Below the pieces are notes generated by a model. It had not been told where the DNA came from and searched no databases. It saw only the letters and a program-made list of their open reading frames with translations. A stretch of 32,000 bases of DNA, from the NCBI RefSeq assembly GCF_042660085.1, contig NZ_JBHSTI010000058.1, forward strand, positions 16,665 to 48,664. Reading direction: 5' to 3'. Positions 13,112 through 32,000 of this stretch are shown in pieces; the stretch's first letter is position 1; each line of letters opens with the position of its first letter. The DNA comes from Longivirga aurantiaca. Lineage in GTDB: Bacteria; Actinomycetota; Actinomycetes; S36-B12; CAIYMF01. A program made the translations under genes and the position numbers.

Positions 13112-13333
13112 TGGCTCGACAGTCCCCGCAGCGATGAAGGCGTCCAGATCTCTCCGGTCGATCCTGACGTACCTCCCGATCTTGTAGAACCGGATGCGAC
13201 GCTCGGCGACGAGCCGTCGAACGAATCGCACCGGCGTGCCCAGTGCTAGCGCGGCTGTCTCGACGTCCAGAAGCGCGTCGGACGTCGTCGCATCACGCGC
13301 CCTGGTCTCCACGTTCGGCACGTCGCCTCCCAC
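13088..13333 (-). CDS. xis: Excisionase-family (MerR/HTH_17-like) DNA-binding protein
   Basis: LLDVETAALALGTPVRFVRRLVAERRIRFYKIGRYVRIDRRDLDAFI is the typical excisionase-family HTH pattern. It is convergent with int and the 3' ends overlap by 24 nt. The start may be an internal GTG. Confidence 0.75.
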   Translation of the reverse strand: MGGDVPNVETRARDATTSDALLDVETAALALGTPVRFVRRLVAERRIRFYKIGRYVRIDRRDLDAFIAAGTVEPSGAVGGS

Positions 13334-19135: not shown

Positions 19136-19968
19136 CCGTGATCGCGGTGTGTTCGGCCAAGGGTGCGCCCGGGGCGACCACCACCGCGCTGGCCCTGGCC
19201 CTGGCCTGGCCGCTGAACGGGGGCTCGGTGCTTCTGGTCGACGCCGACCCGGCCGGCGCGGATCTGGCCTCGGGCTACCTACAGGGCGCGACCGGGCCGG
19301 GCGCCGGAGCCGGCGCCGTCGCGACGGCACGCAGCGACCTGCTCGACGCGGTCCACGGTTCCGCGGTCGCGCTCGACGCGACCGGGTCCCGGCTCCTGCT
19401 CGCCGGGCCCGCACCGTTCCCGCCGACCAGGCCTGGTGCGGCCCCGGCCTGGTCGCGGCTGCGCGACCTCGACAGCACAGGCGAGGGGAGCTGGTCGGTC
19501 CTCGTCGACCTCGGACGACTGCCTGCCGGCGCTGACGCATCGCTGCTGGCGGCCGCGGACCTCGTGGTGCTCGTGACCGGGTCGTCGTTGCGCGCGGTCG
19601 CGGCAGCACGCCCCGCCGCGAAGGCGATGCGCACAGCCGAGCCGGCACACTCGTCGTCGCCGCGGGGGTGGCTGCTGGTCGTCGGGGAGCGACGCCCGTA
19701 CCCGGCCGATGAGGTCGCATCCTCCCTGGGGCTGCCGCTGCTCGGATCGCTGGCCTGGGATCCGCGGGCGGCGGCGGTGCTCAGCGACGGCGCGCCTGCC
19801 GGGCGGTGGTTCGCCCGCACCGCGCTGATGCGTTCCGCGACCGCAGTGACCGCTCGGCTCCGCGACAGCGCCGAGCGTCGCACGCCGTTGTCCGCCCCGA
19901 CGTCCGACGAGTCGCTGCTGCACACCTCCGTAACGGCCCCCGACGCGGCGACGGTGGTGGGCTCGTGA
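19132..19968 (+). CDS. ParA/MinD/CpaE-like protein with degenerate P-loop
   Basis: MTVIAVCSAKGAPGATTTALALALA aligns to the deviant Walker A xKGGxGK[ST]T, but the P-loop Lys is replaced (KGAPGATT). LLVDADPAG is Walker A'-like. ATGA overlap upstream and GTGA overlap downstream. Confidence 0.7.
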   Translation: MTVIAVCSAKGAPGATTTALALALAWPLNGGSVLLVDADPAGADLASGYLQGATGPGAGAGAVATARSDLLDAVHGSAVALDATGSRLLLAGPAPFPPTRPGAAPAWSRLRDLDSTGEGSWSVLVDLGRLPAGADASLLAAADLVVLVTGSSLRAVAAARPAAKAMRTAEPAHSSSPRGWLLVVGERRPYPADEVASSLGLPLLGSLAWDPRAAAVLSDGAPAGRWFARTALMRSATAVTARLRDSAERRTPLSAPTSDESLLHTSVTAPDAATVVGS

Positions 19969-21425
19969 CCGAGCAGCTGCGCGCCGGGCAGGTCGACGAC
20001 CTCGACGCCCCCGCGCTTCACGCGTGGCCCGAACCCGAACCGCCCGCAGCCGACCCGGGCGTCGGGTTGTCCGTCGATCACGGGCTGGTCCGTGAGCTGC
20101 GCCGCGAGGCCGCCGAACGCCTCGCCGCCCGCCTGCAGGCGAACCCGCTGACAGACGCGACGGCCCGCCAGGAGCTGTGCCGCTCCCTGCTCGCCGATGT
20201 CCTAACGGCCCGGTCCCGCGACGCGGCCCGCGCGGGCGCCCCGGGGTGGAGCGTGGAGGAGGAGTTCGCGCTCGCCGACGCGGTCATGTCGGCGCTGTTC
20301 GGCCTGGGACGGCTGCAGCCGCTGGTCGACGACCCGATGGTGGAGAACATCGAGGTCAACGGCCACGACCAGGTCTGGGTGTCCTATGCGGATGGCCGGG
20401 AGGAGCGCGGTCCCGCCGTTGCGGACTCCGACGCCGAGCTCCTCGAGCAGCTCCAGCACCTGGCCGCTCGGGTGGCGGGCAACGAACGCACGTTCACCAC
20501 TGCGAACCCGCGCTTGCACCTGCGCCTGGAGGACGGGTCCCGGCTGGCGGCGATGGCGTGGACGACACCGCGCCCTCAGGTGGTGGTGCGCCGCCACCGG
20601 GTCCGCGACGTCGACCTTGACGACCTCATCGCCCTCGGGATGCTGGACACCGCGCTGGTCGCGTTCCTGCGCGCGGCGCTGCGGTCGGGGAAGAACATCA
20701 TCGTCACCGGGCTGCAGAACGCGGGCAAGACCACGTTGATCCGGGCGTTGGCCAACGAGTTCGACCCGATGGAGCGGTTCGCGACGATCGAGCGGGAGTA
20801 CGAGCTGCACCTGCACGAGCTCCCCGACCGGCACCCCCGGGTGGTGGCGATGGAGGCCCGCGAGGGGTCCAGCGAACGCGACGCTTCGGGCCGCCGCGCG
20901 GGCGAGGTGACGCTGTCCGAGCTGGTGGTGGATGCGCTGCGGATGAACCTGCGCCGCATCATCGTCGGCGAGGTCCGCGGCAGCGAGGCCGTCCCGATGC
21001 TGGAGGCGATGTCGACCGGCGACGGGTCGCTGTGCACGATCCACTCCCGCACCGCCGCGCACGCCCTGGACCGCCTGGTCACCCTGTGCCTGTCCGCGGA
21101 CATCGGGATGACCGACACGTTCGCCTACCGCCTGGTCGCAGGCTCCGTGGACCTCATCGTCCACGCCCGGCTGCTAGACGAGACCCACATCGGGGGGCGG
21201 CGGCACCGGTTCGTGTCCGACATCGTGGAGATCAACGGGATGGGCGAGTTCGGCCGCCCCACCACCACGACCGTCTTCGCCCCCGGACCCGACGGGCGCG
21301 CCGCCCCCACCCACGCACCGGCATGCCTGCCGGAACTGATCAGAGCCGGGTTCGACCCCGGGTTCCTCGACCACCGCACCGGCACCTGGACCATGCCGCT
21401 GGACCTGGTCGGGGCACCGTCATGA
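19965..21425 (+). CDS. cpaF: TadA/CpaF-family secretion ATPase
   Basis: Walker A IIVTGLQNAGKTTLIRAL, Walker B/Asp box RRIIVGEVRGSEA, His box SLCTIHSRTA. About 486 aa from GTG 19965. Confidence 0.9.
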   Translation: MTEQLRAGQVDDLDAPALHAWPEPEPPAADPGVGLSVDHGLVRELRREAAERLAARLQANPLTDATARQELCRSLLADVLTARSRDAARAGAPGWSVEEEFALADAVMSALFGLGRLQPLVDDPMVENIEVNGHDQVWVSYADGREERGPAVADSDAELLEQLQHLAARVAGNERTFTTANPRLHLRLEDGSRLAAMAWTTPRPQVVVRRHRVRDVDLDDLIALGMLDTALVAFLRAALRSGKNIIVTGLQNAGKTTLIRALANEFDPMERFATIEREYELHLHELPDRHPRVVAMEAREGSSERDASGRRAGEVTLSELVVDALRMNLRRIIVGEVRGSEAVPMLEAMSTGDGSLCTIHSRTAAHALDRLVTLCLSADIGMTDTFAYRLVAGSVDLIVHARLLDETHIGGRRHRFVSDIVEINGMGEFGRPTTTTVFAPGPDGRAAPTHAPACLPELIRAGFDPGFLDHRTGTWTMPLDLVGAPS

Positions 21426-22336
21426 CCGCCGTCCTGGCCGCGGTCACCGGCGCGATCCTTGTCGCCGGATTGCTGCTGGTAGTCGCCGGGCTGTTCCCCG
21501 CGCTCGCACCCGCACCGGTGCCGCGTCGCACTGCGACGACGCACCCGCGGCGGCTGCCGGCCGGGTCGACGGCGCGCGCCATCGTCGCGGTTCTGGGTGC
21601 GGCCGTGGCGTGGCTGGTCACCGGGTGGCCGGTCGCGGCGCTCATCGTCGCCGCAACCGTGTGGGGCCTGCCGATCCTGCTCGGGACCTCGACCGTCGCG
21701 GCCGCGGGTATCGACCGGATCGAGGCGCTGGAGGAATGGACGAGGCGCCTGTCCGACGTGCTGGTGGTCGGTGTCGGTCTCGAGCAGGGCATCGCCGCGA
21801 CCGTGCGCACCTGCCCGCAACGCCTGGAGGGCGAGGTGTCCGCGTTGGCGGCGCGGCTGGACGCGCGCTGGTCGACAGAGGCCGCGCTGCGCGCGTTCGC
21901 CGACGACCTCGACGACGCCACCGGCGATCTCGTCGTCGCGACGTTGATCCTGGGCGCCCGTCGTCGGGGCCCCGGCCTGGCACGGGTCCTGGCCGCGGTC
22001 GCGGACTCTGTCGCCGAGGAGGTCGCGATGCGCCGCCGGGTCGAGGCCGAGCGTGCCAAGCCCCGCACCACCGCCCGCGCGGTCACCGTCATCACCTTCG
22101 GCGTGGTCGCCGTCGGCGCGCTCAACGGCACCTACCTCGCCCCCTACGGCACCGTGCTCGGGCAGCTGGTGCTCGCGGTGATCGCGTGCGGGTTCATCGC
22201 CTCGCTGGCGTGGATGCGGGCGCTGACGTTGACCCGACCGCAGCCGCGGCTGTTCCAGCCCACCGGCTCGACGCGACTCGGCGACGCGGCAGGACTCACC
22301 AGCATGCCGGCCGTCGCTGTAAGGGGGGACTCGTGA
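21422..22336 (+). CDS. tadB: TadB-like (T2SS F family) pilus assembly membrane protein
   Basis: Polytopic membrane protein of 304 aa in the position immediately after CpaF. ATGA overlap at 21422-21425. Confidence 0.75.
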   Translation: MTAVLAAVTGAILVAGLLLVVAGLFPALAPAPVPRRTATTHPRRLPAGSTARAIVAVLGAAVAWLVTGWPVAALIVAATVWGLPILLGTSTVAAAGIDRIEALEEWTRRLSDVLVVGVGLEQGIAATVRTCPQRLEGEVSALAARLDARWSTEAALRAFADDLDDATGDLVVATLILGARRRGPGLARVLAAVADSVAEEVAMRRRVEAERAKPRTTARAVTVITFGVVAVGALNGTYLAPYGTVLGQLVLAVIACGFIASLAWMRALTLTRPQPRLFQPTGSTRLGDAAGLTSMPAVAVRGDS

Positions 22337-23220
22337 TCGACCCGTGGGTGATCGCCGCCGGCGCGAGCGTGGGCGCGGGTGTCGCGGTGCTGATCCGCGC
22401 CCTGGTCCCCGACGTCCCCGACCTCGCTGCGGCCCTGGCCCGCCTGGACACCGCCGATCCCGAACCCGTCGCCGTGGTCGGGGCGTCGCGGTGGCATCGC
22501 ACCAGCACCAGCGTCTTCACCGACCTCGGTGCCCGTCTGCACCTGGACCGCTACGCCCGCGACCTCGCCCTGCTCGGCGAGACCCCGGCGACGCTGGCGG
22601 CGCGCAAGACCGGCTACGCGCTGCTCGGGCTGGCGTTCCCGCCGGTCCTGCTCGCCGCGGTCGCGCTGCTGGGCATCGTGCCCCCGATCGTCGTGCCCGC
22701 GGCGGTGTCGCTGCTGCTGGCGGCGGTGCTGTTCTGGGTGCCCGACGCGGACCTGCGCCGCCGCGCGCAGACCGAGCGGGACGCGATGCGCCTGGCGGTG
22801 TGCGCCTACCTCGAGTTCGTCGCCCTCGAGCGCGCCGGCGACGCCGGCACCGTGCAGGCTCTCGAGCGCGCCGCCTGGGTCGCCGATGCGCCGGGGTTCG
22901 TGCGGATCCGCGACGCCCTGACCCGCGCCGAGCTCGCCGGGCGCCCGCCGTGGGACGCGCTCGGCGACCTCTCGGAGCAGGTCGGCGTCCCCGAGCTCGG
23001 TGACCTCGCCGACATCATGCGCCTGTCCGGCACCGACGGCGCCGCCGTCTACGCCACCTTGCGCGCCCGCGCCGCCTCGCTGCGCCACCAGCTGCTGGCC
23101 GCGTCCGCGGCGGAGGCGAACGCCGCAAGCGAGCACATGATCATCCCCGTCGCCCTGCTGGGCATCGCCTTCATGGCCCTGATCGGCTACCCCGCCTTCG
23201 CCCGGATCCTGTTCTCCTAG
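22333..23220 (+). CDS. tadC: TadC-like (T2SS F family) pilus assembly membrane protein
   Basis: 295 aa with TM segments at the N-terminus, the middle and the C-terminus. GTGA overlap with tadB (22333-22336). Confidence 0.75.
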   Translation: MIDPWVIAAGASVGAGVAVLIRALVPDVPDLAAALARLDTADPEPVAVVGASRWHRTSTSVFTDLGARLHLDRYARDLALLGETPATLAARKTGYALLGLAFPPVLLAAVALLGIVPPIVVPAAVSLLLAAVLFWVPDADLRRRAQTERDAMRLAVCAYLEFVALERAGDAGTVQALERAAWVADAPGFVRIRDALTRAELAGRPPWDALGDLSEQVGVPELGDLADIMRLSGTDGAAVYATLRARAASLRHQLLAASAAEANAASEHMIIPVALLGIAFMALIGYPAFARILFS

Positions 23221-23282
23221 AAACACGTCCCATCCCACCGTGCAACGCCCATGCACGCCGTACCGGACAGGAGCACCTCCCG

Positions 23283-23483
23283 ATGACCAGCACCCTGCTC
23301 GCCGCCCGCGTCCTGCTCGTCGGCCACCTCGCCCGCACCCGCCGCACCCTGCGCAATCGGGGTGAGGACGGTGTCTCGACCCTGGAGCTGGTGATCATCG
23401 TGCTCGGGCTCATCGCGGTCGCGACGCTGCTGGTCACCGCGATCACCCTGGCCGTCACCCGCCGCACCGACCAGATCAACTGA
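23283..23483 (+). CDS. Flp/DUF4244-type small pilin precursor
   Basis: 66 aa. A basic leader is followed by G/VSTLELVIIVLGLIAVATLLV, which resembles the Flp G/xxxxE[YL] processing motif plus a hydrophobic helix. GGAG lies upstream. Confidence 0.65.
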   Translation: MTSTLLAARVLLVGHLARTRRTLRNRGEDGVSTLELVIIVLGLIAVATLLVTAITLAVTRRTDQIN

Positions 23484-23500
23484 CCAGGCCCGCCGCAGCC

Positions 23501-23941
23501 ATGCCCGCCCGCCCACTGGCAGGAACCGTCGGCACCGCCCGGTGCCGTCGGTGGCATGCCCGGGGGCAGGACGGGTCGGTGAGCCTGGAGATCGCGATCC
23601 TCGCGCCCGCACTGCTGCTGCTGGTGTTCTCGATCGTCCAGGGCGGCCTGTGGTTCCACGCCCGCAACCTCGCCCAGGCCGCAGCGCAGGAAGGCGCCGC
23701 CGCGGGCGCTGCCTACAACTCGACCACCGGCGCGGCGGTGGCGCGGGCCCGGTCCTTCCTCACCGACCACGCCGGGGACTCGCTGACCGGGACGTCCGTC
23801 ACGGCCGCAGGCACCACAACCGCGTTCGTCCGGATCGAGGTGAGCGGCCGGGCGCTGTCGGTGCTGCCCGGTGTCCCCGGCCTGACCGTCACCCAGGACG
23901 CCCTCGTCCCGGTCGAGCGCTTCACCCCGGACATCCCATGA
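23501..23941 (+). CDS. TadE-like pseudopilin
   Basis: GSVSLEIAILAPALLLLVFSIVQGGLWFHA is the TadE N-terminal motif (xxE followed by a hydrophobic helix). Confidence 0.7.
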   Translation: MPARPLAGTVGTARCRRWHARGQDGSVSLEIAILAPALLLLVFSIVQGGLWFHARNLAQAAAQEGAAAGAAYNSTTGAAVARARSFLTDHAGDSLTGTSVTAAGTTTAFVRIEVSGRALSVLPGVPGLTVTQDALVPVERFTPDIP

Positions 23942-24414
23942 CCGGCAGACGCCCGGGACAGCGGCGCGCCGCTGACCACGCTCTGGGCGCGGCCCGCCGC
24001 GCCGACGCGGGGTCGGTGACCCTCGAGCTGTCGATCCTCGCTCCTGCCGTGCTGGTCCTGCTCGCCCTCGTCGTCGTCGCCGGCCGGCTGTCCATCGCGC
24101 ACCAGGCGGTCGACCACGCCGCCCAGACCGCCGCACGCGCCGCGACCCTGGCCCGCGACCCGGCGGCCGCCACCAGCACCGCGACCAGCGCCGCGCGCCG
24201 CGAGCTCGACACCGGCGACCTGCACTGCGCCACCGTGCGCGTCACCGTGGATACCAGCGGGTTCGCCGTCCCCGTCGGACGCCCGGCATCGGTCACCGCG
24301 ACCGTCACCTGCACGGTGTCGCTGTCCGGTCTCGCCGTGCCCGGCATGCCCGGATCGCGGCAGGTCACCGCGACGGCGACCAGCCCGCTGGACACCTACC
24401 GGGGCCGGTCATGA
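23938..24414 (+). CDS. TadE-like pseudopilin (second copy)
   Basis: GSVTLELSILAPAVLVLLALVVVAGRL is a TadE-type N-terminus. ATGA overlaps at both ends. Confidence 0.7.
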   Translation: MTGRRPGQRRAADHALGAARRADAGSVTLELSILAPAVLVLLALVVVAGRLSIAHQAVDHAAQTAARAATLARDPAAATSTATSAARRELDTGDLHCATVRVTVDTSGFAVPVGRPASVTATVTCTVSLSGLAVPGMPGSRQVTATATSPLDTYRGRS

Positions 24415-24857
24415 CCCCCCGACGTCCCACGCGGCACCGAAACGGCGGGCGCTGCGATGAGGGGTCGGCGACGGTATTCCTGTCCATCACCGTCCTCGGG
24501 CTGCTCGTCCTCATCGGCCTCGTCGTCGACGGCGGCGCCAAGATCCGCGGCATCCAACGCGCCGACGCCCTGGCCGCCGACGCCGCCCGCGTCGCCGGGC
24601 AGCGCATCGACGTCCCCGACGCCATCACCGGCCAGGACCCCACCCTGGACACCCGCGCCGCGACCGCAGCGGCCCGCGCCTACCTCACCGCCCGCGGCGT
24701 CACCGGGACCGTCACCACCACCGGAACCACCGTCACCGTGACCGTCACCGATTCGACCCCGACCGTGTTCCTCGGCCTCATCGGCATTCACACCCTCACC
24801 GTGAACGGGCGTGCCAGCGCCACCCTCGTCCCCGGCATCTCCGGAGCCGCACCATGA
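24411..24857 (+). CDS. TadG/Rv3654c-like pilus assembly protein
   Basis: EGSATVFLSITVLGLLVLIGLVVDGGAKIRGIQRADALAADAAR is a Tad(G)-type N-terminal domain pattern. Confidence 0.65.
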   Translation: MTPRRPTRHRNGGRCDEGSATVFLSITVLGLLVLIGLVVDGGAKIRGIQRADALAADAARVAGQRIDVPDAITGQDPTLDTRAATAAARAYLTARGVTGTVTTTGTTVTVTVTDSTPTVFLGLIGIHTLTVNGRASATLVPGISGAAP

Positions 24858-27800
24858 CCAGAGCCACCACCCTGGCGACCAGCCGAGGGGCAGAGTCCGT
24901 GACCCACGCCGGGCGCCGCCGGCGCGGCGCCGAGATCGTGCGCGCCGTGGCCGCCCTGCTCGTGCTCGCAGCGCTCATCGTCGGCATTCCCGCACTGCTG
25001 CTCGTCGTCGCCCCGGCGCTGGACTGGCCCACCCTGTCTTGGCAGGCAATCACCTCCGCGCTGACCCGCCCCGACGACGGGCACCTCCTGCTGACCGCGC
25101 TGACGCTGCTGGCATGGGCTGCGTGGGCGGTGTTCGCCGTCTCCGTGGTCGTGGAGACGGTCGCGATGCTGCGCGGCCTGCCCACGCCACGACTCCCGCT
25201 GGCCGGTGCGCCACAGAAGCTCGCCGCGTCCCTTGTCGCCTCGGCCGCGATGCTCCTGGCCGCACCCAGCGGTACCGCACCCGGACACATCCCGCCTGTC
25301 CCGGCCGTCGCCGCAGACCCGGCACCAACCGGGTCGGCTTCGTCGGCCCAGCTCCCGACCTCGGCCCCGGCTACGGGGCGCCCTGCGGCGCAGCCGACGG
25401 CCGCCCCGACCTCGCCTCAGCCGCGGGCCGACCACGGCGCAGCCCGCGCGTCCGCATCCTCGACCTCGGTGCACGCCCATGCGAATGATCAGGTCCATCA
25501 GGCGGGCCGGGCTGCTCGCGACCTCACGATCACCGTCGTGCGTGGCGACACCCTCTGGGACCTCGCAGCCACTCACCTCGGCGACGGCGCACGCTTCCGC
25601 GAGATCGCCCGCCTCAACTACGGGCGCCCCCAGCACGACGGCCGCACCCTCACCGACACCCACTGGATCCACCCCGGCTGGGTCCTGCTCCTGCCCGAGC
25701 AGCACGCGGCCGCACCCGACACCGCCCACGCGCCGAAGCCGACGCCGCAACCGGCGACGCAGAACGGCGGCTCGGAGCACCGCACCTATGTGGTGCAGCG
25801 TGGCGACACGCTCTGGGACATCGCCGCCCACCAGCTCGGCGACCCCCTGCGCTACCGGGAAATCCACCAGCTCAACCGCGACCGCACCCAGCCCGACGGC
25901 CAGCACCTCGACGACCCCCGGCTCATCCAGCCCGGCTGGATCCTCCTGCTGCCCGCCCGTCACGACGCCGACCCGGCTCCTGGGACCGCACCGACGGCAC
26001 CACCCCGGACGCCCGAAGCGCCTCCCGTCGACGAGCCGGACGGTCGAGCACCGGTGATACCTGCCCCGACGACGCCGCGAGCTGTCACGGCCCCGCCCCA
26101 CCGCACCCCCGCAGTAGAGCCCGAGCGCACAGCCGCAGCGACGCCCGCCCCGACGGAGCCGAGTGCACAGCAGACAGCCACCCCGGCAGCGGAGGCCGAA
26201 GCCGGAGATGCGATCAGCAGGAGCTGGTCGCAGATCGTTCTCGGACTCACCGCCCTGACCGCCACCGGGTTTCTCGCCGAACTCGCCCGACGACGACGAC
26301 GCCAGCAGCAGCAACGCCGCCCCGGGCAGCGCCTCCCCCTGCCCACCGGGGACCCCGCCGCCGCGGAACGCATCCTGCGCAGCGCCCGGACTCCCGTCAC
26401 CCTCGACACCGTCGCGTCGGCACTGCAGCAGATGGCCGACGGCTGCCGCACCACAGGACGGCCCATGCCACGGCTTCTGGCCGTCCTCGTCGGCCAGCAC
26501 CAGCTCGACATCATCGTCGACGTGTCGATGGGGAACGGTGCCGCTGGCGACGAGCCTCCCCCTGCTGCACCGTTCACCAACGCGCCAGCCGGAGAGGCGC
26601 CCGTCGGCGACAACGTCGTTCTGTGGCGGCTCGACCCGACGGCGCTGGAAAGCGCACCCGGTGAGGATTCCGCGCCGTCGATGTCCGGGATCGTCGCCTA
26701 TCCCGCCCTGGTGACCCTCGGCACGGTCGAGGACCGCATGTTCCTGCTCAACCTCGAAGCGGCCGGCACCTTCGAGCTGGTTGGCGACGACCACGCGACG
26801 GCGGCAGTCCTTCGGACGCTGGGCGTCGAGCTGGCCACCAGCCCCCTCTCCGCGGCGTCCACGCTCATCCTCACCGACCATCTGCGCGACCTCGCCGACG
26901 TCGCCGATCCCGACCGCGTCGCCGCCGTCGACGACACCGCCGCTGCCCGTCGCGCGGACGTCCGGCTCGCCACCGTGCGCCAAGCGCTCGACGCTGAGGA
27001 CCTGCCCGACCTGCATGACGCGCGCTCGACCGGACGCGCACTGGACCACTGGGCTCCCGAGGTGCATCTGGGGCACGACAACGCCATCTGTCCGGCACCG
27101 TGGTCGGGTGTCGCCGTCGTCACGACCGCCAGCGCGTCACGGGAGAGCGCTACCGGGTGGATGATGCGCGTCCACGCCGACGCGGACGCCGTCCTCGAAC
27201 CGCTCGGCGTGCACATCGTCGCGTCCCGGCTCTCCGACACCGACTACGAATCCCTGCTCGCGCTGCTGGACGCCGCCAACCAGCAACCCGAGTACGTCAC
27301 CGAGGTTGCACCCGGCTGGGAACGGCCTGCGACCGGCTCGACCGCGCATATCGGCGAGTTGGACGAATCCGAGGAGGCCGACGACGTCGAGTCGCTCATC
27401 GAGCAGCTCATCTCGACCGCCCCGCTCGCCCTGAGATCACGGCGAGCTGCCGTCATAGCGGCCCTGCCCGACATCCCCGGCACGGCCGACGAGCGAGACC
27501 TCGAGCCGGACCCGGACACCCCCCGGATCATGCTGCTCGGCCGCGTCGACGTCGCCGGCGCCAGCACCCCCGCCACGGCGCGCCGAGGCCGCTCACTGGA
27601 GCTGCTCGCCTACCTCGCCCTGCACCCCGGCGCGAGTGCCAGCGAGCTCGACGACGCACTCTGGCCCGGCCAGCGCGTCACCTACGACATGCGGAACTCC
27701 CTCATCTCCCGAACCCGCACCTGGCTCGGCACCGACCACGACGGGCGGCCCTACCTCGAACACAGCAACAACTCCGGCCGCGGGTACCGGCTGCACCCGG

Positions 27801-28237
27801 CCGTGCGCACCGACTGGCACGACCTGCTCCGTCTGGCCCGCCACGGGCTTATCAAGGACGACGGCGACCAGCTGAACGCGGCACTCAGACTCGTCCGCGG
27901 CCGCCCCTTCCTCGGAGTCGACCCGGCCGGCTACGCGTGGGCAGAGGCCGACGCGCAGACGATGATCAGCACCATCGTCGACATCGCCCACGACACCGCC
28001 ACCCACCTCATGGACAACGGGAGACCGACCGCCGCTCGGTCCGCACTCGCCACAGGACTCACCGTGGAGCCCGCCAGTGAGGCCCTCGCCTACCAGGCCA
28101 TGCTCCTCGCGGCACGAACCGGCGACCGCTGCGAACTCGAGCGGCTTGCCCACCGACTTCGCGAGCAAGTCAGGGCTATCGACCCCGACGCGACACTGGA
28201 CGCGACCTTGAGCGCACTACTGACGACGAGCAAATGA
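24854..28237 (+). CDS. Membrane protein with two LysM domains and a C-terminal wHTH + BTAD (SARP-like) domain
   Basis: 1127 aa. N-terminal TM helices. LysM 1 is VVRGDTLWDLAATHLGDGARFREIARLN...GWVLLLP and LysM 2 is VVQRGDTLWDIAAHQLGDPLRYREIHQLN...GWILLLP. A Pro-rich linker follows, then TM IVLGLTALTATGFLAELA and RRRRRQQQQRR. The C-terminus is OmpR-like/BTAD (RIMLLGRVDV...LELLAYLALHPGASASELDDALWP...GYRLH...WHDLLRLA...LRLVRGRPF). ATGA overlap with the tadG-like gene. Confidence 0.85.
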   Translation: MTRATTLATSRGAESVTHAGRRRRGAEIVRAVAALLVLAALIVGIPALLLVVAPALDWPTLSWQAITSALTRPDDGHLLLTALTLLAWAAWAVFAVSVVVETVAMLRGLPTPRLPLAGAPQKLAASLVASAAMLLAAPSGTAPGHIPPVPAVAADPAPTGSASSAQLPTSAPATGRPAAQPTAAPTSPQPRADHGAARASASSTSVHAHANDQVHQAGRAARDLTITVVRGDTLWDLAATHLGDGARFREIARLNYGRPQHDGRTLTDTHWIHPGWVLLLPEQHAAAPDTAHAPKPTPQPATQNGGSEHRTYVVQRGDTLWDIAAHQLGDPLRYREIHQLNRDRTQPDGQHLDDPRLIQPGWILLLPARHDADPAPGTAPTAPPRTPEAPPVDEPDGRAPVIPAPTTPRAVTAPPHRTPAVEPERTAAATPAPTEPSAQQTATPAAEAEAGDAISRSWSQIVLGLTALTATGFLAELARRRRRQQQQRRPGQRLPLPTGDPAAAERILRSARTPVTLDTVASALQQMADGCRTTGRPMPRLLAVLVGQHQLDIIVDVSMGNGAAGDEPPPAAPFTNAPAGEAPVGDNVVLWRLDPTALESAPGEDSAPSMSGIVAYPALVTLGTVEDRMFLLNLEAAGTFELVGDDHATAAVLRTLGVELATSPLSAASTLILTDHLRDLADVADPDRVAAVDDTAAARRADVRLATVRQALDAEDLPDLHDARSTGRALDHWAPEVHLGHDNAICPAPWSGVAVVTTASASRESATGWMMRVHADADAVLEPLGVHIVASRLSDTDYESLLALLDAANQQPEYVTEVAPGWERPATGSTAHIGELDESEEADDVESLIEQLISTAPLALRSRRAAVIAALPDIPGTADERDLEPDPDTPRIMLLGRVDVAGASTPATARRGRSLELLAYLALHPGASASELDDALWPGQRVTYDMRNSLISRTRTWLGTDHDGRPYLEHSNNSGRGYRLHPAVRTDWHDLLRLARHGLIKDDGDQLNAALRLVRGRPFLGVDPAGYAWAEADAQTMISTIVDIAHDTATHLMDNGRPTAARSALATGLTVEPASEALAYQAMLLAARTGDRCELERLAHRLREQVRAIDPDATLDATLSALLTTSK

Positions 28238-28537
28238 CTCCGCCGGGAAGCCGCCGAGGCTGGACGTGTCCACGGAGCATTGCCGGAGCGGGCTGGACGA
28301 GATGCAGGGCATTCACTTCAGCTTCCGCGGTGCGATGCTGGGCATCCGCAATCCCGAGCTCACGAACTGTTCGGACACGAGGACCCAGAGAGCGCCCGTG
28401 AGTACCTCGGGTCCGCGAGTCTGCTGCACCGCCGCCTCGATATCGCTCAACAGAAGCTCGACGCGGGCTGATCTGGTCGCCTCAGCCATCTCCCCCAGGT
28501 CCCTATTCGCGAACTGCGTAGAGTTGATGGCGATCGG

Positions 28538-29260
28538 CTAGGCAGGCAGCAAGGGCAGGGCGAGTTGTGCCCTCGCAGCTCGCCGGACTTCGGACCTTCT
28601 CTGTGGGTCGCGCAAGGCGTCCTGCCGTGTCGGCCCGTCGGCGCTTGGCTGGCTGCGGAGGAAGTCGTGACACTCGTGTTCGGCGGCGGCGGGGTCGGCC
28701 CCCTGGGTCACACGCTCGCTTACCCAGTCCTCGGTCAGTTCCGCTTCGGCAGAAGGCCCCGCGGTGACTTCTGCGAAGAGATGGGTCGGGACGATGACTC
28801 GGCTGTTGTGGTGGACCCACCGCTGAAGGAGGAGGTTCACACCGACCTCGGAAAGGCAGGCGACACGGTCGTACGCGGCAAGGTCCTCCGGGGTGACCAC
28901 CAGGATCTGGTTGAACTTGCCCGCGCGGTGACCGGAGTCGCCTCCGACGGCTTCCAGCAGCTCAGGCAGTGGCATGAGCTTGAAGCTCCCCTTCCACTGT
29001 TCCGTGGAGAGCAGCGGTGCCGGCTCGACCTCCGCTACGAGAATGCGCGGGACAAGGTCAACTCCGTTGATGCGGAGCGCGCAGGGGTGCTGGAGTACGA
29101 GCAGCTGCGAGGGACCGACGGCCTCGCTGGCCTGGCCCTCCGCAAGCGGGCGCGGAGTGAACACGTCTCCGGTGAAGACGGGCCGCTCATCAGCGACGTC
29201 CTCTCCACGCGCGAGATACAGCTCTCCCCAGTCATGGGGTGCCTCGAGCTCACTGGGCAT
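28538..29260 (-). CDS. Hypothetical protein, third gene of the three-gene operon (no family recognised)
   Basis: 240 aa. The ATG at 29258-29260 lies 1 nt from the upstream stop (29262-29264). Non-artefactual composition. Conserved-looking blocks are RPVFTGDVF and LLVLQHPCALR. Confidence 0.65.
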   Translation of the reverse strand: MPSELEAPHDWGELYLARGEDVADERPVFTGDVFTPRPLAEGQASEAVGPSQLLVLQHPCALRINGVDLVPRILVAEVEPAPLLSTEQWKGSFKLMPLPELLEAVGGDSGHRAGKFNQILVVTPEDLAAYDRVACLSEVGVNLLLQRWVHHNSRVIVPTHLFAEVTAGPSAEAELTEDWVSERVTQGADPAAAEHECHDFLRSQPSADGPTRQDALRDPQRRSEVRRAARAQLALPLLPA

Positions 29261-29261
29261 G

Positions 29262-29900
29262 TCAGCCCTTGGTCCGGATGGACAGTTGCCCGTCCTCGGC
29301 CGCGAACACTTCGAAGTCCGAGCTGTACTGCTGACGCCAGTCGGGGTTCAGCTGGTTGAGGACGGTCTCCGTGTCTGTGTGGTTGCCCGCGTAGTCGAAC
29401 AGAAGCTGGTACTGCTCCTGTGCGTAGAGGTCGACGGGGGTGACCGGGATGCCCGTGACCAACGGCATCTCGAACCAGGACGCGACCTCACTGACGAGGT
29501 AATCCTCGGTGATCAGGTCGCAAGCTGCGACGAGGTTGGCGAGCATGCGCCGGTTGTCTCCAGTGACCTTGCCGCCCCGCCGCCACTTCTGCACTGACGG
29601 CACGCTCACGCGGACCATGCGGGCGATGTCTCGCCAGGAGAATCCGAGGTCTGACAGGTGACCCAGGAGTTCGAGGGGTGCCTCCTTGCCTCGACGCATT
29701 GCCCGGTCGGTCCACTCGTTGAGCTGGGTGTCGAGGTGTAGCCCTTGGGTGTCGTCGCTGAGCTGGCGCACCTGATGGCGTAGGAAGCCCGCCTTCTCCG
29801 TGAGCTGAGTCGATGTCTGGGTCGAGGAGCGCTGCGCTGCTTCCAGGCGGGGCACGCCGAGCTGCGACTCGGCTGTGGCCAGGTCGTTGTCACTTGCCAT
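29262..29900 (-). CDS. HTH (XRE-like) protein with C-terminal region resembling the MbcA/ParS (DUF2384) antitoxin toxin-binding domain
   Basis: 212 aa. HTH FSWRDIARMVRVSVPSVQKWRRGG. C-terminal VASWFEMPLVTGIPVTPVDLYAQEQYQLLFDY fits the W..P....G..P.dl pattern. The start overlaps the upstream gene's stop by 11 nt. Confidence 0.65.
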   Translation of the reverse strand: MASDNDLATAESQLGVPRLEAAQRSSTQTSTQLTEKAGFLRHQVRQLSDDTQGLHLDTQLNEWTDRAMRRGKEAPLELLGHLSDLGFSWRDIARMVRVSVPSVQKWRRGGKVTGDNRRMLANLVAACDLITEDYLVSEVASWFEMPLVTGIPVTPVDLYAQEQYQLLFDYAGNHTDTETVLNQLNPDWRQQYSSDFEVFAAEDGQLSIRTKG

Positions 29901-30732
29901 CGCGGCGAAGCACCTCGTCTCGGAGTCGGTCGGTGATCGAGCTTTCGAACAGGGTTCTCACTGGTCCGTGGAGCGCCTCCAACGCGCTCGTGACCGCGTT
30001 CAGGTCAAGCTCCGGAACCGCCTGTGTGGCCGGACCCCAGTAGCTGTCGATGTCGATCAGGAAGAAGGGTCCGGGCGGCGGGGTCTTGCGCCGTAGATCG
30101 CCGTCGGGGGCGAGGGCGTATCCCTCCCCGGTTCCGTAGCGCAGGACGAGCGACATCTGCTCGAAATCGCCAGCGTCCAGCTTGCCGGAGTAGGTGGAGA
30201 TGCCCTGCCACGCGTCGTTCGTCAGCTCCAGCTGATCAGCCAGGTGGTTCGGCCCCAGAAGGGTGGGTCCGATCCAGTCTCTCCATGAGCTGGTGTCGCC
30301 GACGCTGGGTACTCGGATCTCGTCGATGTAGCGCAGACCGAGTCGTTCCACCCCGTCGAGCGATCCGACGCTCAGCCGGGCTGAGAGCACCCGTTGGGTA
30401 AGCGCAAGAAACGCCTCGAACCCAGGGTATTCAGTCGTCTCGATGACCACGGCGTCCGCATGGAACGTCGCGCTCGTAATCAGGTCGCGGCTGAGGAAGC
30501 GGGGGGAGCTGATGGCCGTGGTGGGTTGGAACTGAGGGGCGGCGACGCCGGGACCGATGGTGGCGACCATGCCAGCGGGGCGATTGAGCGGCCTAGCCAC
30601 AGGCAGTTCGTCTGCCAGCGCACGCTTGAGTTGCTGCTTCTCCCTGTCGCTCAACGTGCCGGCATCGGGGTGGCGGATCTCCGCTGCCACCAGGACCAAG
30701 GGCGCGTTCGGGTAGACCTCGCGGCTGGACAC
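29890..30732 (-). CDS. TIGR04255-like uncharacterised protein
   Basis: The N-terminal VYPNAPLVLVAAEIRHP matches my recollection of the family's Y-x-N-A-P-[IL] opening. About 280 aa from GTG 30732, with AGGAG 13 nt upstream. The Cys-rich 48-aa extension to 30876 in the ORF track is probably not translated. Confidence 0.65.
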   Translation of the reverse strand: MSSREVYPNAPLVLVAAEIRHPDAGTLSDREKQQLKRALADELPVARPLNRPAGMVATIGPGVAAPQFQPTTAISSPRFLSRDLITSATFHADAVVIETTEYPGFEAFLALTQRVLSARLSVGSLDGVERLGLRYIDEIRVPSVGDTSSWRDWIGPTLLGPNHLADQLELTNDAWQGISTYSGKLDAGDFEQMSLVLRYGTGEGYALAPDGDLRRKTPPPGPFFLIDIDSYWGPATQAVPELDLNAVTSALEALHGPVRTLFESSITDRLRDEVLRRDGK

Positions 30733-31072
30733 GTTCGAGATGGTACTCCTCTCGCTACCCCAACGACAACCGGAACAACAACTGAAACAGTGACCGCAAT
30801 GTCGCAGGTGGCAATTGGGTTGGCCCCAAGACATCCCGTCGACCCAGCTTGGAGCCCCGCGCTGCCGCAGTAACAACAGTAGGAACCGGTCGGCCGCCGG
30901 CAGCTGGGCTGCACGGTGTCCCGGGTGGGTGCTTCACTGCCACGCCAGCCGTGGGGTGCTATGGCGCCATGTGTCGCAGCTCGACCCGGACTTCGTGCAC
31001 CATTGCCTTTGGGGGGTTACCGAGGTTTAGAGAATCTGGCTAAAGCGAACTAACATCGATAACATTGCCTGT

Positions 31073-32000
31073 GTGGACCCGCTGCGCAACCCCTACACGC
31101 CCAACGCTGGCGCGCGACCGCCGGTGATTTTGGGTCGCGACGACCAGTTGCAGACCTTCGCGCTGCTGCTGGCCCGGATGGCGGCCGGTCGCACCGAGCA
31201 GTCGATGATCATCACCGGTCTTCGCGGGGTTGGGAAGACGGTCCTGCTGGGAAGCTTCCGCACGGAGGCGCTCGGGCAGAGCTGGGTCGTGATCGACAGC
31301 GAGGTGAGCAAGCACTCCGACGACGCGTTCCGCCGCGACCTGGTGTCGGACTTCCGGACCGCGCTGTTCGAGCTGTCCCCGAAGGCGCGGTGGAGCGATC
31401 GGCTCAAGCGCGCTGCCTCGGTGTTGCGTTCCTTCTCGATCTCCGTCGACCCGTCCGGGTCGCTGACGGCTGGCGTCGACGTGGCTGCGCTGGAGGGGCA
31501 GGCGGACAGCGGCAACCTGCACCGCGACCTGAGCGATCTGTTCGTCGCGATCGGCGAAGCGGCGCAGGAGCAGGGCCGCGGGGTGGTCCTGCTCTACGAC
31601 GAGGTGCAGTTCCTCACCCAGCCCCAGCTCGAGGCGCTGATCGCGGCTCTGCACAAGACGGTGCAGCGCGGCCTCCCGGTCACTCTGGTTGGTGCGGGCC
31701 TTCCCCAGATCGCTGAGTTGGCAGGGGACGCGAAGTCGTACGCCGAGCGCCTGTTCAAGTTCCCGCGGATCGGCAGCCTGAGCGACGCGGACGCGAGCCG
31801 CGCGCTGGCCGACCCGGCCGAGAGCGAGGGCGCGACCTTCAGCCCTGGTGCGCTGCACCTCGCCGTCGAACTGACCGAGGGCTACCCGTACTTCATCCAG
31901 GAGTTGGGCTACGCCGTGTGGGGTGTGGCGGGCGGGCCGACGATCACCCCCGATGACGTCGAGGCGGCTCTGCCCCTATACGAGTCGAAGCTGGACTCCT
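31073..32000 (+). CDS. Large P-loop NTPase (AAA_16/Arch_ATPase-like 'ATP-binding protein'), 3' end outside the window
   Basis: Not in the supplied ORF track because it has no stop in the window. My translation from GTG 31073 is VDPLRNPYTPNAGARPPVILGRDDQLQTF...SMIITGLRGVGKTVLLGSF (Walker A) ... GRGVVLLYDEVQFL (Walker B) ... GYPYFIQELGYAVW. The frame is open to nt 32000. Confidence 0.8.
   Translation, partial: MDPLRNPYTPNAGARPPVILGRDDQLQTFALLLARMAAGRTEQSMIITGLRGVGKTVLLGSFRTEALGQSWVVIDSEVSKHSDDAFRRDLVSDFRTALFELSPKARWSDRLKRAASVLRSFSISVDPSGSLTAGVDVAALEGQADSGNLHRDLSDLFVAIGEAAQEQGRGVVLLYDEVQFLTQPQLEALIAALHKTVQRGLPVTLVGAGLPQIAELAGDAKSYAERLFKFPRIGSLSDADASRALADPAESEGATFSPGALHLAVELTEGYPYFIQELGYAVWGVAGGPTITPDDVEAALPLYESKLDS

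Follow-up and report, generated by a model that had tools for sequence, protein, structure and literature searches.

A candidate three-part toxin–antitoxin-like module with a TIGR04255-family protein on mobile DNA of Actinomycetota

INTRODUCTION

The described systems that come closest to the locus studied here include the RES–Xre pairs, for which MbcT–MbcA of M. tuberculosis, ParS–ParT, NatR–NatT, the P. putida Xre–RES pair and VPA0769–VPA0770 served as comparators, and the MazEF, PemIK (Kid–Kis) and CcdAB systems. In three-component toxin–antitoxin systems, such as the HigB–HigA–SecB-like chaperone TAC system of M. tuberculosis and paaR–paaA–parE, three genes are co-transcribed and the third protein modulates the toxin–antitoxin pair. 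A MazF-like domain has a precedent as a defence effector in GajC of type II Gabija (PMC13069673), and RES–Xre homologues with non-canonical, domesticated behaviour have been reported, as in the case of GndRX (PMC12457610).

Here we analyse a 32,000-nt stretch of Longivirga aurantiaca DNA (the window), in which a sequence-only reading had singled out three adjacent genes, g1, g2 and g3, as a candidate undescribed toxin–antitoxin-type or defence module. A literature search on similar three-part systems returned nothing describing the trio, and the combination is described in no library or paper that we searched. An undescribed three-part toxin–antitoxin or abortive-infection module best explains the trio; the earlier proposal is supported in this respect by predicted folds, co-occurrence and mobility, with no match in PADLOC or PHROG and only weak HTH matches in Pfam.

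RESULTS

Organization of the operon and its surroundings

The operon lies on the minus strand and opens with g1, a TIGR04255-family protein of 280 aa with a GTG start (29890..30732), followed by the HTH protein g2 (212 aa, 29262..29900) and by g3 (240 aa, 28538..29260). The tight packing claimed from the letters alone was confirmed when the sequence was read: the g1 stop and the g2 start overlap by 11 nt, ATGGCAAGTGA (29890..29900, minus strand), and a single base, GGCTGACATG, separates the g2 stop from the g3 start. The proteins are exact matches to three consecutive annotated genes of L. aurantiaca (MFC6239679-81), and in all three frames the G+C at the codon positions is typical of coding sequence (GC3 0.78–0.84, GC2 0.43–0.49). 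A 328-aa, TTG-started version of g1 was rejected, as homologues and the deposited annotation favour the 280-aa GTG start.

The trio has a G+C content of 65.9%, against 72.5% for the remainder of the window, and the base counts on which its lower G+C had first been proposed are exact (38/60 at 29281-29340, 45/60 at 20041-20100). The low-G+C stretch extends from ~28.2 kb to the window end and also contains a divergent ATPase gene (31073 to the window end). The sequence-only reading called this a STAND-like ATPase facing the operon; it does face the operon and encodes an AAA_16 protein (E = 7e-18), but its STAND-type matches are only faint, and it was rejected as a fourth component since it is missing from all 55 other genome loci.

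The intergenic region between g1 and the ATPase gene (30733..31072, no strand assigned) is presumed to be the promoter and operator region, and GAGAGGAG is located within it, 14 nt upstream of the g1 GTG. No sigma-70-type site or notable palindrome was found in this region, and a search of the operon surroundings revealed no promoter, terminator or notable palindrome. Inverted repeats upstream of g1 are not enriched across 112 loci (best perfect arm 5.67 nt, compared with 5.40 nt in shuffled sequence), and an Rfam search of 27.5–32 kb gave no match. The mobile context recognized previously was also found: a tyrosine integrase gene (11906-13111) and an excisionase-like gene lie ~15 kb from the trio in the same island, and the integrase, the Xis-like gene, Tad-type secretion genes and TrbL/VirB6 make the carrier ICE-like.

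g1 is a TIGR04255 protein with an invariant polar constellation

g1 matches NCBIfam TIGR04255 over model positions 2-250 of 252 (E = 3.3e-40; 138.5 bits, cut-off 30), the family to which its opening YPNAPL motif had already pointed. Sequence searches of Pfam, PADLOC, PHROG and PDB gave no match to g1, a profile of g1 made diverse on purpose gave nothing significant against PDB, and no toxin family matches g1 in searches of Pfam, NCBIfam, PADLOC, PHROG and PDB. A literature search for TIGR04255 and IPR026349 found no paper mentioning TIGR04255. Alignments A4 and A5, which take in Acinetobacter, Klebsiella, Thermus and phage-contig members at 19–25% identity, reveal an invariant R-x-G-x-R-Y (R-L-G-L-R-Y in g1, aa 130-135; 30328..30345, minus strand), an invariant D-x-D (D-I-D, aa 227-229; 30046..30054, minus strand) and an invariant H. 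These family-wide residues suggest a ligand-binding or catalytic site.

g3 is predicted to combine a toxin-like barrel with a family-specific helical domain

The AF2 model of g3 (pLDDT 92.8, pTM 0.88) contains an N-terminal β-barrel (aa ~15-136; 28853..29218, minus strand) with a MazF/PemK/CcdB-like fold by Foldseek. MazF, MoxT and CcdB account for all of the top 33 PDB matches (E 6.5e-4 to 0.16, probability 0.92–1.0, TM on target 0.51–0.72), which span only ~130 columns, and PemK-like proteins come out on top in BFVD. The N-terminal half of the model thus adopts the SH3-like β-barrel fold of the MazF/PemK/CcdB toxins. The second half is predicted, from the secondary structure of the model and from alignment A1 (40 sequences), to be a helical domain (aa 138-233; 28562..28849, minus strand), which opens with an invariant GVNLLLQRWVHHNSR block in which QRWVHHNSR occupies 28799-28825. 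The barrel carries a second motif, Q-H-P-C-A-L-R (aa 57-63; 29072..29092, minus strand), in which H58, P59, C60 and R63 are invariant in A1. A search for g3 gave 526 homologues, and 729 clusters were obtained at 50% identity.

At the level of sequence, neither whole g3 nor its halves match anything in Pfam (including E<=1), NCBIfam, PADLOC or PHROG; PDB sequence and profile searches gave nothing significant for any of the three families, and no PemK, CcdB, Xre_MbcA_ParS_C or RES match to the trio proteins appears in Pfam at E<=0.1. The sequence-only reading was right that g3 is not RES-like, as there is no Pfam RES match and the predicted fold differs. Its statement that g3 matches nothing is true of the sequence libraries, but with a MazF/PemK/CcdB fold in its N-terminal half g3 is no complete orphan. 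Two automatic calls were discarded: the UniRef name 'uroporphyrinogen III synthase domain-containing', which has no Pfam support, and an apparent g2–g3 fusion (P0392), whose N-terminus is an out-of-frame Arg/Pro-rich mis-call.

Alignment by hhalign of the g3 profile with B. subtilis MazF is not significant (4% probability). In it R25, the catalytic Arg of the β1–β2 loop of MazF, falls on a K/R-rich but variable g3 column that holds Ser in the Longivirga protein, and T48, the catalytic Thr/Ser, also falls on a variable column. Judged from this non-significant alignment, the classical MazF catalytic Arg and Thr may not be kept in g3, and ribonuclease activity should therefore not be assumed.

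g2 resembles antitoxins of the RES–Xre family in its predicted fold

In the AF2 model of g2 (pLDDT 85), a disordered N-terminus (aa 1-25) is followed by a long helix (30-70), an HTH (75-107), a helical C-domain (114-191) and a β-hairpin (196-210). The HTH, matched by Pfam HTH_23, HTH_3 and HTH_17 at aa 79-108, LGHLSDLGFSWRDIARMVRVSVPSVQKWRR (29577..29666, minus strand), is the most conserved block in alignment A2; the HTH_23 match (E = 3.2e-5) is just below the model cut-off. The C-terminal helical domain (29328..29561, minus strand) carries a conserved ASWFEMPL...PVTPxDLY block in A2 and is the candidate partner-binding domain. There are 125 g2 homologues.

The top seven Foldseek PDB matches of g2 are NatR, MbcA and VPA0769 entries (8qnl, 6fkg_C, 8qnq, 8gug), all of the RES-antitoxin family (E 0.015–0.18, probability 0.98–1.0, TM on target 0.51–0.62, with 0.62 for 6fkg_C). 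The matches to this family cover ~100 columns, and the P. putida Xre entries 9r35 and 6gw6 match with probabilities of 0.77 and 0.38. The predicted architecture is thus that of the solved MbcA, NatR and Xre structures, in which a helical toxin-binding domain comes after the HTH. The Xre-like HTH and MbcA-like segment proposed from the sequence are accordingly borne out at the level of fold, whereas the Pfam models miss the MbcA likeness: Xre_MbcA_ParS_C/DUF2384, Xre-like-HTH and Xre-MbcA-ParS_M give no match to g2 at E<=0.1. The only PADLOC-DB 2.0 match of g2 is to CARF (E = 0.0018), at chance level. As to a cognate toxin of the RES type, no Pfam RES match was found in g1 or g3. The fold-search E-values are modest for both proteins (6.5e-4 for g3, 1.5e-2 for g2), and both come from predicted models.

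The trio is conserved as a unit and is horizontally mobile

A pattern scan for g3 in 185,579 species genomes, which may miss distant copies, found 56 loci, in 54 of which the trio is present in the same order. Starting from g1 instead, g2 is present on 69/69 and g3 on 51/51 of the metagenome contigs with enough room. The co-occurrence check proposed along with the sequence-only reading therefore finds the trio together almost always across Actinomycetota, without the ATPase elsewhere. The tight coupling is preserved in relatives: in 46/46 intact loci, residue 1 of g3 projects to within ~30 nt of the g2 stop. The surroundings are unrelated between loci (353 flanking proteins form 310 clusters), and the G+C of the trio is below that of its flanks in 45/47 loci, with GC3 lower in 50/52.

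Besides the ICE-like element of L. aurantiaca, carriers include a Rhodococcus plasmid, on which the trio adjoins a MobF relaxase, Pseudarthrobacter plasmids and a few IMG/VR viral contigs; recombinases and integrases occur among the flanks, and many copies are found among ordinary chromosomal genes. The module occurs in Mycobacterium, Rhodococcus, Arthrobacter and Frankia and, by protein matches, in Bifidobacterium and Streptomyces; no copy of g1 or g3 was found in 50,697 sequenced phage genomes. The trio is thus conserved as an adjacent, coupled unit that is horizontally mobile, as are type II toxin–antitoxin systems. Few defence genes occur in the flanks, and most of them come from a single group of related type I R-M loci. 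For the candidate toxin–antitoxin-type or defence system of the earlier reading, a defence role is possible, as is plasmid or ICE addiction.

Frameshifts fall selectively in g3

Eight loci carry a frameshifted g3 beside intact g1 and g2, and the position of the frameshift differs in each of them. Were disruptions distributed over the three genes according to their length, all eight would land in g3 with a probability of 1.3e-4. The set found via g1 shows the same g3-only pattern, and overall there are about nine independent frameshifts, g3 being the sole gene of the trio found in this state. All frameshifted copies come from metagenome assemblies, but assembly errors should not single out g3. 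Such g3-only frameshifts are what would be expected of the toxic part of a module; the intact g1 and g2 beside a broken g3 also fit an addictive pair formed by these two.

Related layouts beyond Actinomycetota

On Acinetobacter and Klebsiella plasmids, a more distant TIGR04255 gene is followed by an HTH gene and then by a differing third protein, WP_001258235 in Acinetobacter and WP_065808898 in Klebsiella. The Acinetobacter counterpart of g2 has weak Pfam matches to Xre-like-HTH (2.3e-4) and Xre-MbcA-ParS_M (0.04). In some phage and Thermus contexts TIGR04255 genes have no HTH neighbour. No similarity was detected when the g3 profile was compared, by hmmsearch and hhalign, with the third proteins of Acinetobacter and Klebsiella and with the neighbour on the L071 phage contig. 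The Acinetobacter, Klebsiella and Thermus versions match no system in PADLOC-DB 2.0, and no copy of the Klebsiella-type trio was found in E. coli genomes. Third and neighbour proteins share the look of a β-strand followed by xxC (SQDCDIA and TPCCSM, compared with QHPCALR in g3), for which homology is not claimed.

DISCUSSION

Our results favour, with a probability of roughly 0.55, the view that the trio is a self-contained, horizontally mobile three-part toxin–antitoxin-like module. In this module g3 would be the toxic effector, with its MazF/PemK/CcdB-type barrel, family-specific helical domain and invariant QHPCxxR and QRWVHHNSR motifs. g2 would neutralize it and probably repress its own operon, the Xre-type HTH being combined with an MbcA/ParS-like helical domain that may bind and block the partner; its disordered N-terminus could render it unstable. 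The order of g2 and g3 is the classical one of antitoxin, then toxin. g1, which is translated first and is translationally coupled to g2, would be an obligatory third component that is most likely a sensor or modulator timing toxin release, or that possibly contributes a second activity. Carried by ICE-like elements, plasmids and prophages, the module may stabilize its carrier by post-segregational killing, abort phage infection, or both; a PADLOC-DB 2.0 search gave no match for g1 or g3.

The roles of the genes could also be distributed differently, with g1 as the toxin and g2 as its antitoxin, toxin first as in higBA or mqsRA, and with g3 as an accessory regulator or adaptor that happens to contain a MazF/CcdB-type barrel. 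Several observations are consistent with this: TIGR04255 is the most widely kept part, in a layout that recurs, with a varying third protein, on plasmids of Acinetobacter and Klebsiella; the polar constellation of R-x-G-x-R-Y, D-x-D and H is strictly invariant in g1; g1 and g2 overlap by 11 nt; and both stay intact wherever g3 is frameshifted, as an addictive pair would. However, the recognized toxin fold lies in g3 and not in g1, which no toxin family matches, g3 is the gene that is inactivated, the usual fate of a costly part, and in phage and Thermus settings some TIGR04255 genes lack an HTH gene beside them. We regard this distribution of roles as improbable.

Slightly less likely still, in our view, the trio could serve mobile elements as a regulatory or sensory cassette without toxicity, in which g1 and g3 would set the activity of g2 as a transcription factor and thereby control, for example, element transfer or lysogeny without killing. 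The DNA-binding HTH of g2, the position of the module between ICE-like secretion and conjugation genes and beside the relaxase on pNAPH, the apparent non-conservation of the MazF catalytic residues in g3 and the existence of domesticated RES–Xre homologues (GndRX, PMC12457610) would all agree with such a cassette, but frameshifts confined to g3 are hard to square with a harmless co-regulator and many copies sit among ordinary chromosomal genes. Furthermore, flanking genes are wholly different between loci, so that there is no common regulon to control. An ordinary host housekeeping or metabolic operon with incidentally low G+C, to which only the automatic 'uroporphyrinogen III synthase domain-containing' name of g3 in one source would point, is close to refuted, as neither that name nor any enzyme family has Pfam or NCBIfam support, a pattern scan, which can overlook distant copies, found the trio in only 56/185,579 species genomes, its flanks are unrelated, its G+C is below that of the host in most loci, and copies lie on plasmids and viral contigs.

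The three-part toxin–antitoxin-like module might be one instance of something wider. We tentatively entertain, as a single joint proposal that is possible but less likely than not, that TIGR04255 is the conserved core of a large, unrecognized class of modular conflict systems, in which a TIGR04255 sensor or enzyme would be combined with an Xre/MbcA-like adaptor and with an effector that can be exchanged. Members would be spread over Actinomycetota, Gammaproteobacteria, Deinococcota and the genomes of phages, in which they would form small cassettes inserted beside terminase genes. In Actinobacteria the class would use a new MazF/CcdB-fold effector with a His/Cys-rich site whose activity is neither classical MazF RNA cleavage nor CcdB gyrase poisoning. 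If this proposal is true, it would provide the first MbcA-type antitoxin controlling a non-RES toxin.

The trio provides a first functional context for TIGR04255, which is a curated family with annotated members in many genomes. With g3 it also brings out a new family of toxin-like proteins, ~730 clusters at 50% identity, in which a MazF/CcdB barrel is accompanied by a novel conserved site and by an additional domain. The predicted fold of g2 suggests that RES toxins are not the only partners of MbcA/ParS-type antitoxins; if so, this would be one more case of antitoxin domains re-used across toxin families. Should the module help to maintain plasmids or ICEs, or make its hosts resistant to phages, this would, in view of the genera that carry it, be relevant to actinobacterial genetics and to phage-based applications.

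Comparison with known systems

With the RES–Xre systems the trio shares the predicted fold of g2, which best matches RES–Xre antitoxins in its HTH and helical toxin-binding domain, and the position of g2 directly upstream of the proposed toxin, tightly coupled to it and on mobile DNA. Unlike these systems, neither partner of g2 has a RES or NAD-phosphorylase domain, g2 itself is lengthened by a disordered N-terminus and a 40-residue helix and is missed by the Pfam models of the family, and the trio has an obligatory third gene.

MazEF, PemIK and CcdAB resemble the trio in the barrel of the N-terminal half of g3, in the downstream position of g3 in a coupled pair and in its toxin-like loss by frameshift. 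However, g3 is double the size, with a conserved helical C-terminal domain absent from classical MazF or CcdB, has no sequence similarity to these toxins and possesses invariants of its own (HPC...R and QRWVHHNSR), and its partner is Xre/MbcA-like rather than of the MazE/AbrB, PemI or CcdA type. Three-component toxin–antitoxin systems likewise consist of three genes, but the third protein here is TIGR04255, neither a SecB-like chaperone nor an additional repressor; its gene comes first in the operon, and any action of it on the antitoxin would be conjectural.

The likeness to GajC of type II Gabija (PMC13069673) lies in the combination of a MazF-like barrel with a helical element in the effector of a multi-gene conflict system. 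In GajC the helices split the barrel, whereas in g3 they come after it, and GajC is partnered by a UvrD-type helicase, whereas the partners of g3 are an HTH protein and a TIGR04255 protein.

Results

The three genes are tightly packed on the minus strand, at the coordinates the sequence-only reading gave throughout: g1, encoding the TIGR04255 protein (29890-30732), overlaps g2, encoding the helix-turn-helix (HTH) protein (29262-29900), by 11 nt (ATGGCAAGTGA), and a single base separates g2 from g3, encoding the 240-aa protein (28538-29260). Their products match exactly those of the consecutive Longivirga aurantiaca (Sporichthyaceae) genes MFC6239679-81, and G+C content by codon position indicates that all three are real coding frames. 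The window is high-G+C actinobacterial DNA (72%), and the trio is lower, as claimed earlier (65.9% versus 72.5% for the rest of the window; the earlier counts of 38/60 and 45/60 are exact), with the low-G+C stretch extending through the divergent ATPase gene to the window end. Upstream of the accepted GTG the g1 frame has no stop for 48 codons, back to a TTG (30733-30876), and this stretch codes for a Cys/His-rich sequence, CHLRHCGHCFSCCSGC; it is probably untranslated, since the homologues and the deposited annotation begin at the GTG. The space separating the LysM gene from the g3 end is occupied by a plus-strand ORF of 91 aa (28266-28541, high GC3 of 0.82), with a 4-nt overlap at the g3 stop; this ORF may be spurious.

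The trio is a real, conserved and mobile module. A scan seeded with the g3 motifs, using one genome per species (185,579 species), returned 56 loci, and the three genes are contiguous, in the same order and orientation, in 54 of these, the two exceptions being decayed remnants. A separate metagenome scan was seeded with g1 and, counting contigs with enough room, found g2 in 69/69 and g3 in 51/51, so that the trio proposed from the sequence as one system does co-occur across genomes. Identities across the genome loci are 36-65% for g1, 40-71% for g2 and 38-65% for g3, and the close spacing is also retained in other loci. Hosts include Actinomycetes (Arthrobacter, Mycobacterium, Rhodococcus, Frankia, Humibacillus, Propionibacteriaceae and Bifidobacteriaceae, with Streptomyces and Bifidobacterium longum added by protein matches), Acidimicrobiia and Thermoleophilia. 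The 353 flanking genes fall into 310 unrelated clusters, and therefore no fourth gene travels with the trio. Its G+C is below that of the flanks in 45/47 loci (mean difference -6 points) and its GC3 is lower in 50/52. The flanks include resolvases, serine recombinases, tyrosine integrases and transposases, as well as a type I restriction-modification system in four related loci, and are otherwise ordinary chromosomal genes. On the Rhodococcus plasmid pNAPH the trio lies directly 3' of the MobF relaxase gene; Pseudarthrobacter plasmids carry two copies and IMG/VR viral contigs a handful, and none was found in 50,697 sequenced phage genomes.

An ICE-like island encloses the trio in the window, and the trio's predicted association with an integrase holds: a tyrosine integrase gene on the plus strand (401 aa, Phage_integrase with a SAM-like N-domain), followed by a convergent gene for an 81-aa HTH_17 excisionase-like (Xis-like) protein, spans 11906-13333 and marks one end of the lower-G+C region. 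The window as a whole yielded no tRNA gene. The island contains a Tad/Flp-type secretion cluster (19806-24857) with a T2SSE ATPase (19806-21425), a T2SSF membrane protein (21610-23220) and, judged by appearance of the sequence, a 66-aa Flp-like peptide (23283-23483) and two TadE-like small membrane proteins (23501-23941 and 24411-24857). The 1127-aa protein that follows (24854-28237) begins with a membrane segment, contains two LysM domains and long linkers rich in Pro, Ala and Thr, and at its C-terminus weakly matches BTAD, a bacterial transcriptional activator domain; a relative lies beside the trio in one other locus (L038; L numbers denote loci collected in our scans). The divergent gene (31073-32000, running past the window; 401 aa in full at L001 4982-6187) does encode an ATPase facing the operon, of AAA_16 type with the Walker A motif GLRGVGKT and low G+C like the trio, but the STAND-like label drew only faint nSTAND matches, alongside faint BrxC/D ones. 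The next gene in L001, beyond the window end, encodes the island's TrbL/VirB6-like conjugation protein. Elsewhere the ATPase accompanies the trio only in a metagenome-assembled genome near-identical to the window and in no other genome, and it was rejected as a partner.

Membership of g1 in TIGR04255, called from its sequence, is unambiguous (138.5 bits, cut-off 30), and searches of Pfam, PADLOC, PHROGs and the PDB gave no match besides TIGR04255 itself. R-x-G-x-R-Y, D-x-D and a His are invariant across distant relatives.

The predicted structure of g2 (AlphaFold, pLDDT 85) has a disordered N-terminus, a 40-residue helix, an HTH (weak Pfam match, residues 79-108), a helical C-domain and a terminal hairpin. 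Its best Foldseek matches in the PDB are NatR, MbcA, VPA0769 and Pseudomonas putida Xre, all antitoxins of RES toxins; the first three make up the top seven (E 0.015-0.18, probability near 1), and two Xre entries rank 10th and 47th (E 0.63 and 3.4). The earlier MbcA/ParS assignment is therefore right at the level of the predicted fold, although g2 escapes detection by that family's Pfam models.

The remark that g3 matches nothing recognisable holds for profile searches of Pfam, NCBIfam, PADLOC, PHROG and the PDB, but not for its structural model (pLDDT 92.8, pTM 0.88, very high confidence), in which a barrel spans residues ~15-136. The 33 best PDB matches to this barrel are without exception MazF, MoxT/PemK or CcdB toxins; a search of a viral structure library gave PemK-like proteins. 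Residues 138-233 form a helical domain absent from classical MazF and CcdB. The family numbers 729 clusters (50% identity) in a set of 1.84 billion representatives. Its members invariably keep QHPCxxR, which follows the second strand, GVNLLLQRWVHHNSR, with which the helical part begins, and the residues E172, E177 and W179. These appear to differ from the MazF catalytic pair, the positions of which fall on variable g3 columns in the sole, non-significant alignment obtained. The UniRef name of g3 (MFC6239679.1 / UniRef100_A0ABW1T623), 'Tetrapyrrole biosynthesis uroporphyrinogen III synthase domain-containing protein', found no support in Pfam and NCBIfam searches.

In eight genome loci (L016, L042, L045, L048, L049, L052, L053 and L056) a frameshift, at a different position in each, divides g3 between two reading frames, and g1 and g2 are intact in 8/8; if disruption is proportional to gene length, the chance of all eight falling in g3 is 1.3e-4. 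Two further loci hold g3 remnants only. In the g1-seeded set at least one additional g3 frameshift is independent, and g1 and g2 have none; outside the eight loci, g3 is frameshifted, with g1 and g2 intact, in L083/L085 and L120, the last apparently of the same lineage as L056. The affected copies all come from metagenome assemblies, but errors of assembly would not be expected to favour g3 over its neighbours. In toxin-antitoxin modules, a gene that is lost preferentially is usually the one for the toxic component.

TIGR04255 genes of 20-25% identity head similar operons, with overlapping or nearly overlapping genes, on an Acinetobacter baumannii plasmid (NZ_CP043459; L057 3977-6153) and a Klebsiella pneumoniae phage-plasmid (pVA126-339; L059 3824-6088), where they are followed by an HTH protein (189 or 213 aa) and a 273- or 278-aa hypothetical protein. 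The middle proteins share with g2 the HTH and the next helix at the same protein position (hhalign probability 90% for Klebsiella; weak Xre-antitoxin Pfam matches for Acinetobacter). Between them the third proteins share 30% identity, and neither has detectable similarity to g3. A phage tape-measure gene lies nearby on the Klebsiella record. More distant TIGR04255 genes adjoin terminase genes in phage contigs and have other small partners. Among the IMG/VR loci (L069 4986-6731, L070 4653-6163 and L071 4983-6622), one gene sits between large terminase and portal with two coupled small ORFs (169 and 141 aa), another is 5' of terminase genes, and a third, with DNA methyltransferases on its flanks, precedes a 249-aa protein whose RFGDVV...VVMTPCCSM stretch recalls g3. 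The g1 homologue P0298 was called as a 425-aa protein whose N-terminus is a small-terminase (Terminase_6) domain; this is a genuine fusion, or else the gene caller joined two neighbouring phage genes. On Thermus brockianus plasmid pTB1 (L058 2599-4453) a TIGR04255 gene lies beside a CopG/VapC toxin-antitoxin pair, a DNA methylase and cas6, and the next gene encodes a 147-aa hypothetical protein, not an HTH protein. From these few examples, TIGR04255 looks like a conserved core whose partners can be exchanged, a pattern typical of conflict systems.

Discussion

Our preferred reading, to which we assign a probability of roughly 0.55, is that the trio is a three-part toxin-antitoxin-like module. 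The g3 protein would be the toxin, combining a MazF/CcdB-type barrel with a family-specific active or binding site; g2 would be the antitoxin and probably an autorepressor, its MbcA-like domain holding the partner; and g1, as the third and obligatory part, would sense or modulate. For the carrier the benefit may be stability, phage exclusion or both. What the data show is the arrangement of the genes, their predicted folds, the co-occurrence and mobility of the trio and the decay of g3; toxicity, binding, autoregulation, the target and what g1 does are inferences. The main rival, that g1 is the toxin of a toxin-first pair with g2, accounts for the persistence of g1 and g2 where g3 breaks and for TIGR04255 being the most widely kept part, but it leaves the toxin fold of g3 unexplained and we consider it unlikely. 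The distribution of the trio is a poor fit to both a non-toxic regulatory cassette, which is rather improbable, and a housekeeping operon, which is very improbable.

Recent work has reported defence effectors built on a MazF-like barrel with added helices, namely GajC of type II Gabija (PMC13069673), which makes it plausible that the trio may act in abortive infection. The trio is best filed among toxin-antitoxin or abortive-infection systems. Many candidate systems of this general kind exist. This one would join, on its predicted models, a toxin fold of the MazF/CcdB type to an antitoxin fold of the MbcA type; it also places TIGR04255 in a context for the first time and offers a clear residue set for testing. 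It is apparently undescribed, as first suggested: neither TIGR04255 nor its InterPro names came up in a search of the literature, and none of the three components has a model in PADLOC 2.0.

The trio would work like a type II toxin-antitoxin system, but it belongs to neither the RES-Xre nor the MazEF/CcdAB family. It differs from RES-Xre in that the RES partner is absent, as the sequence-only reading had noted, and in the failure of the Pfam models for g2. From MazEF/CcdAB it differs in that Pfam models fail for g3 and the antitoxin type is mismatched with the toxin fold, and g3 departs from MazF and CcdB themselves in its extra domain and apparently different conserved residues. The third gene sets the trio apart from both families.
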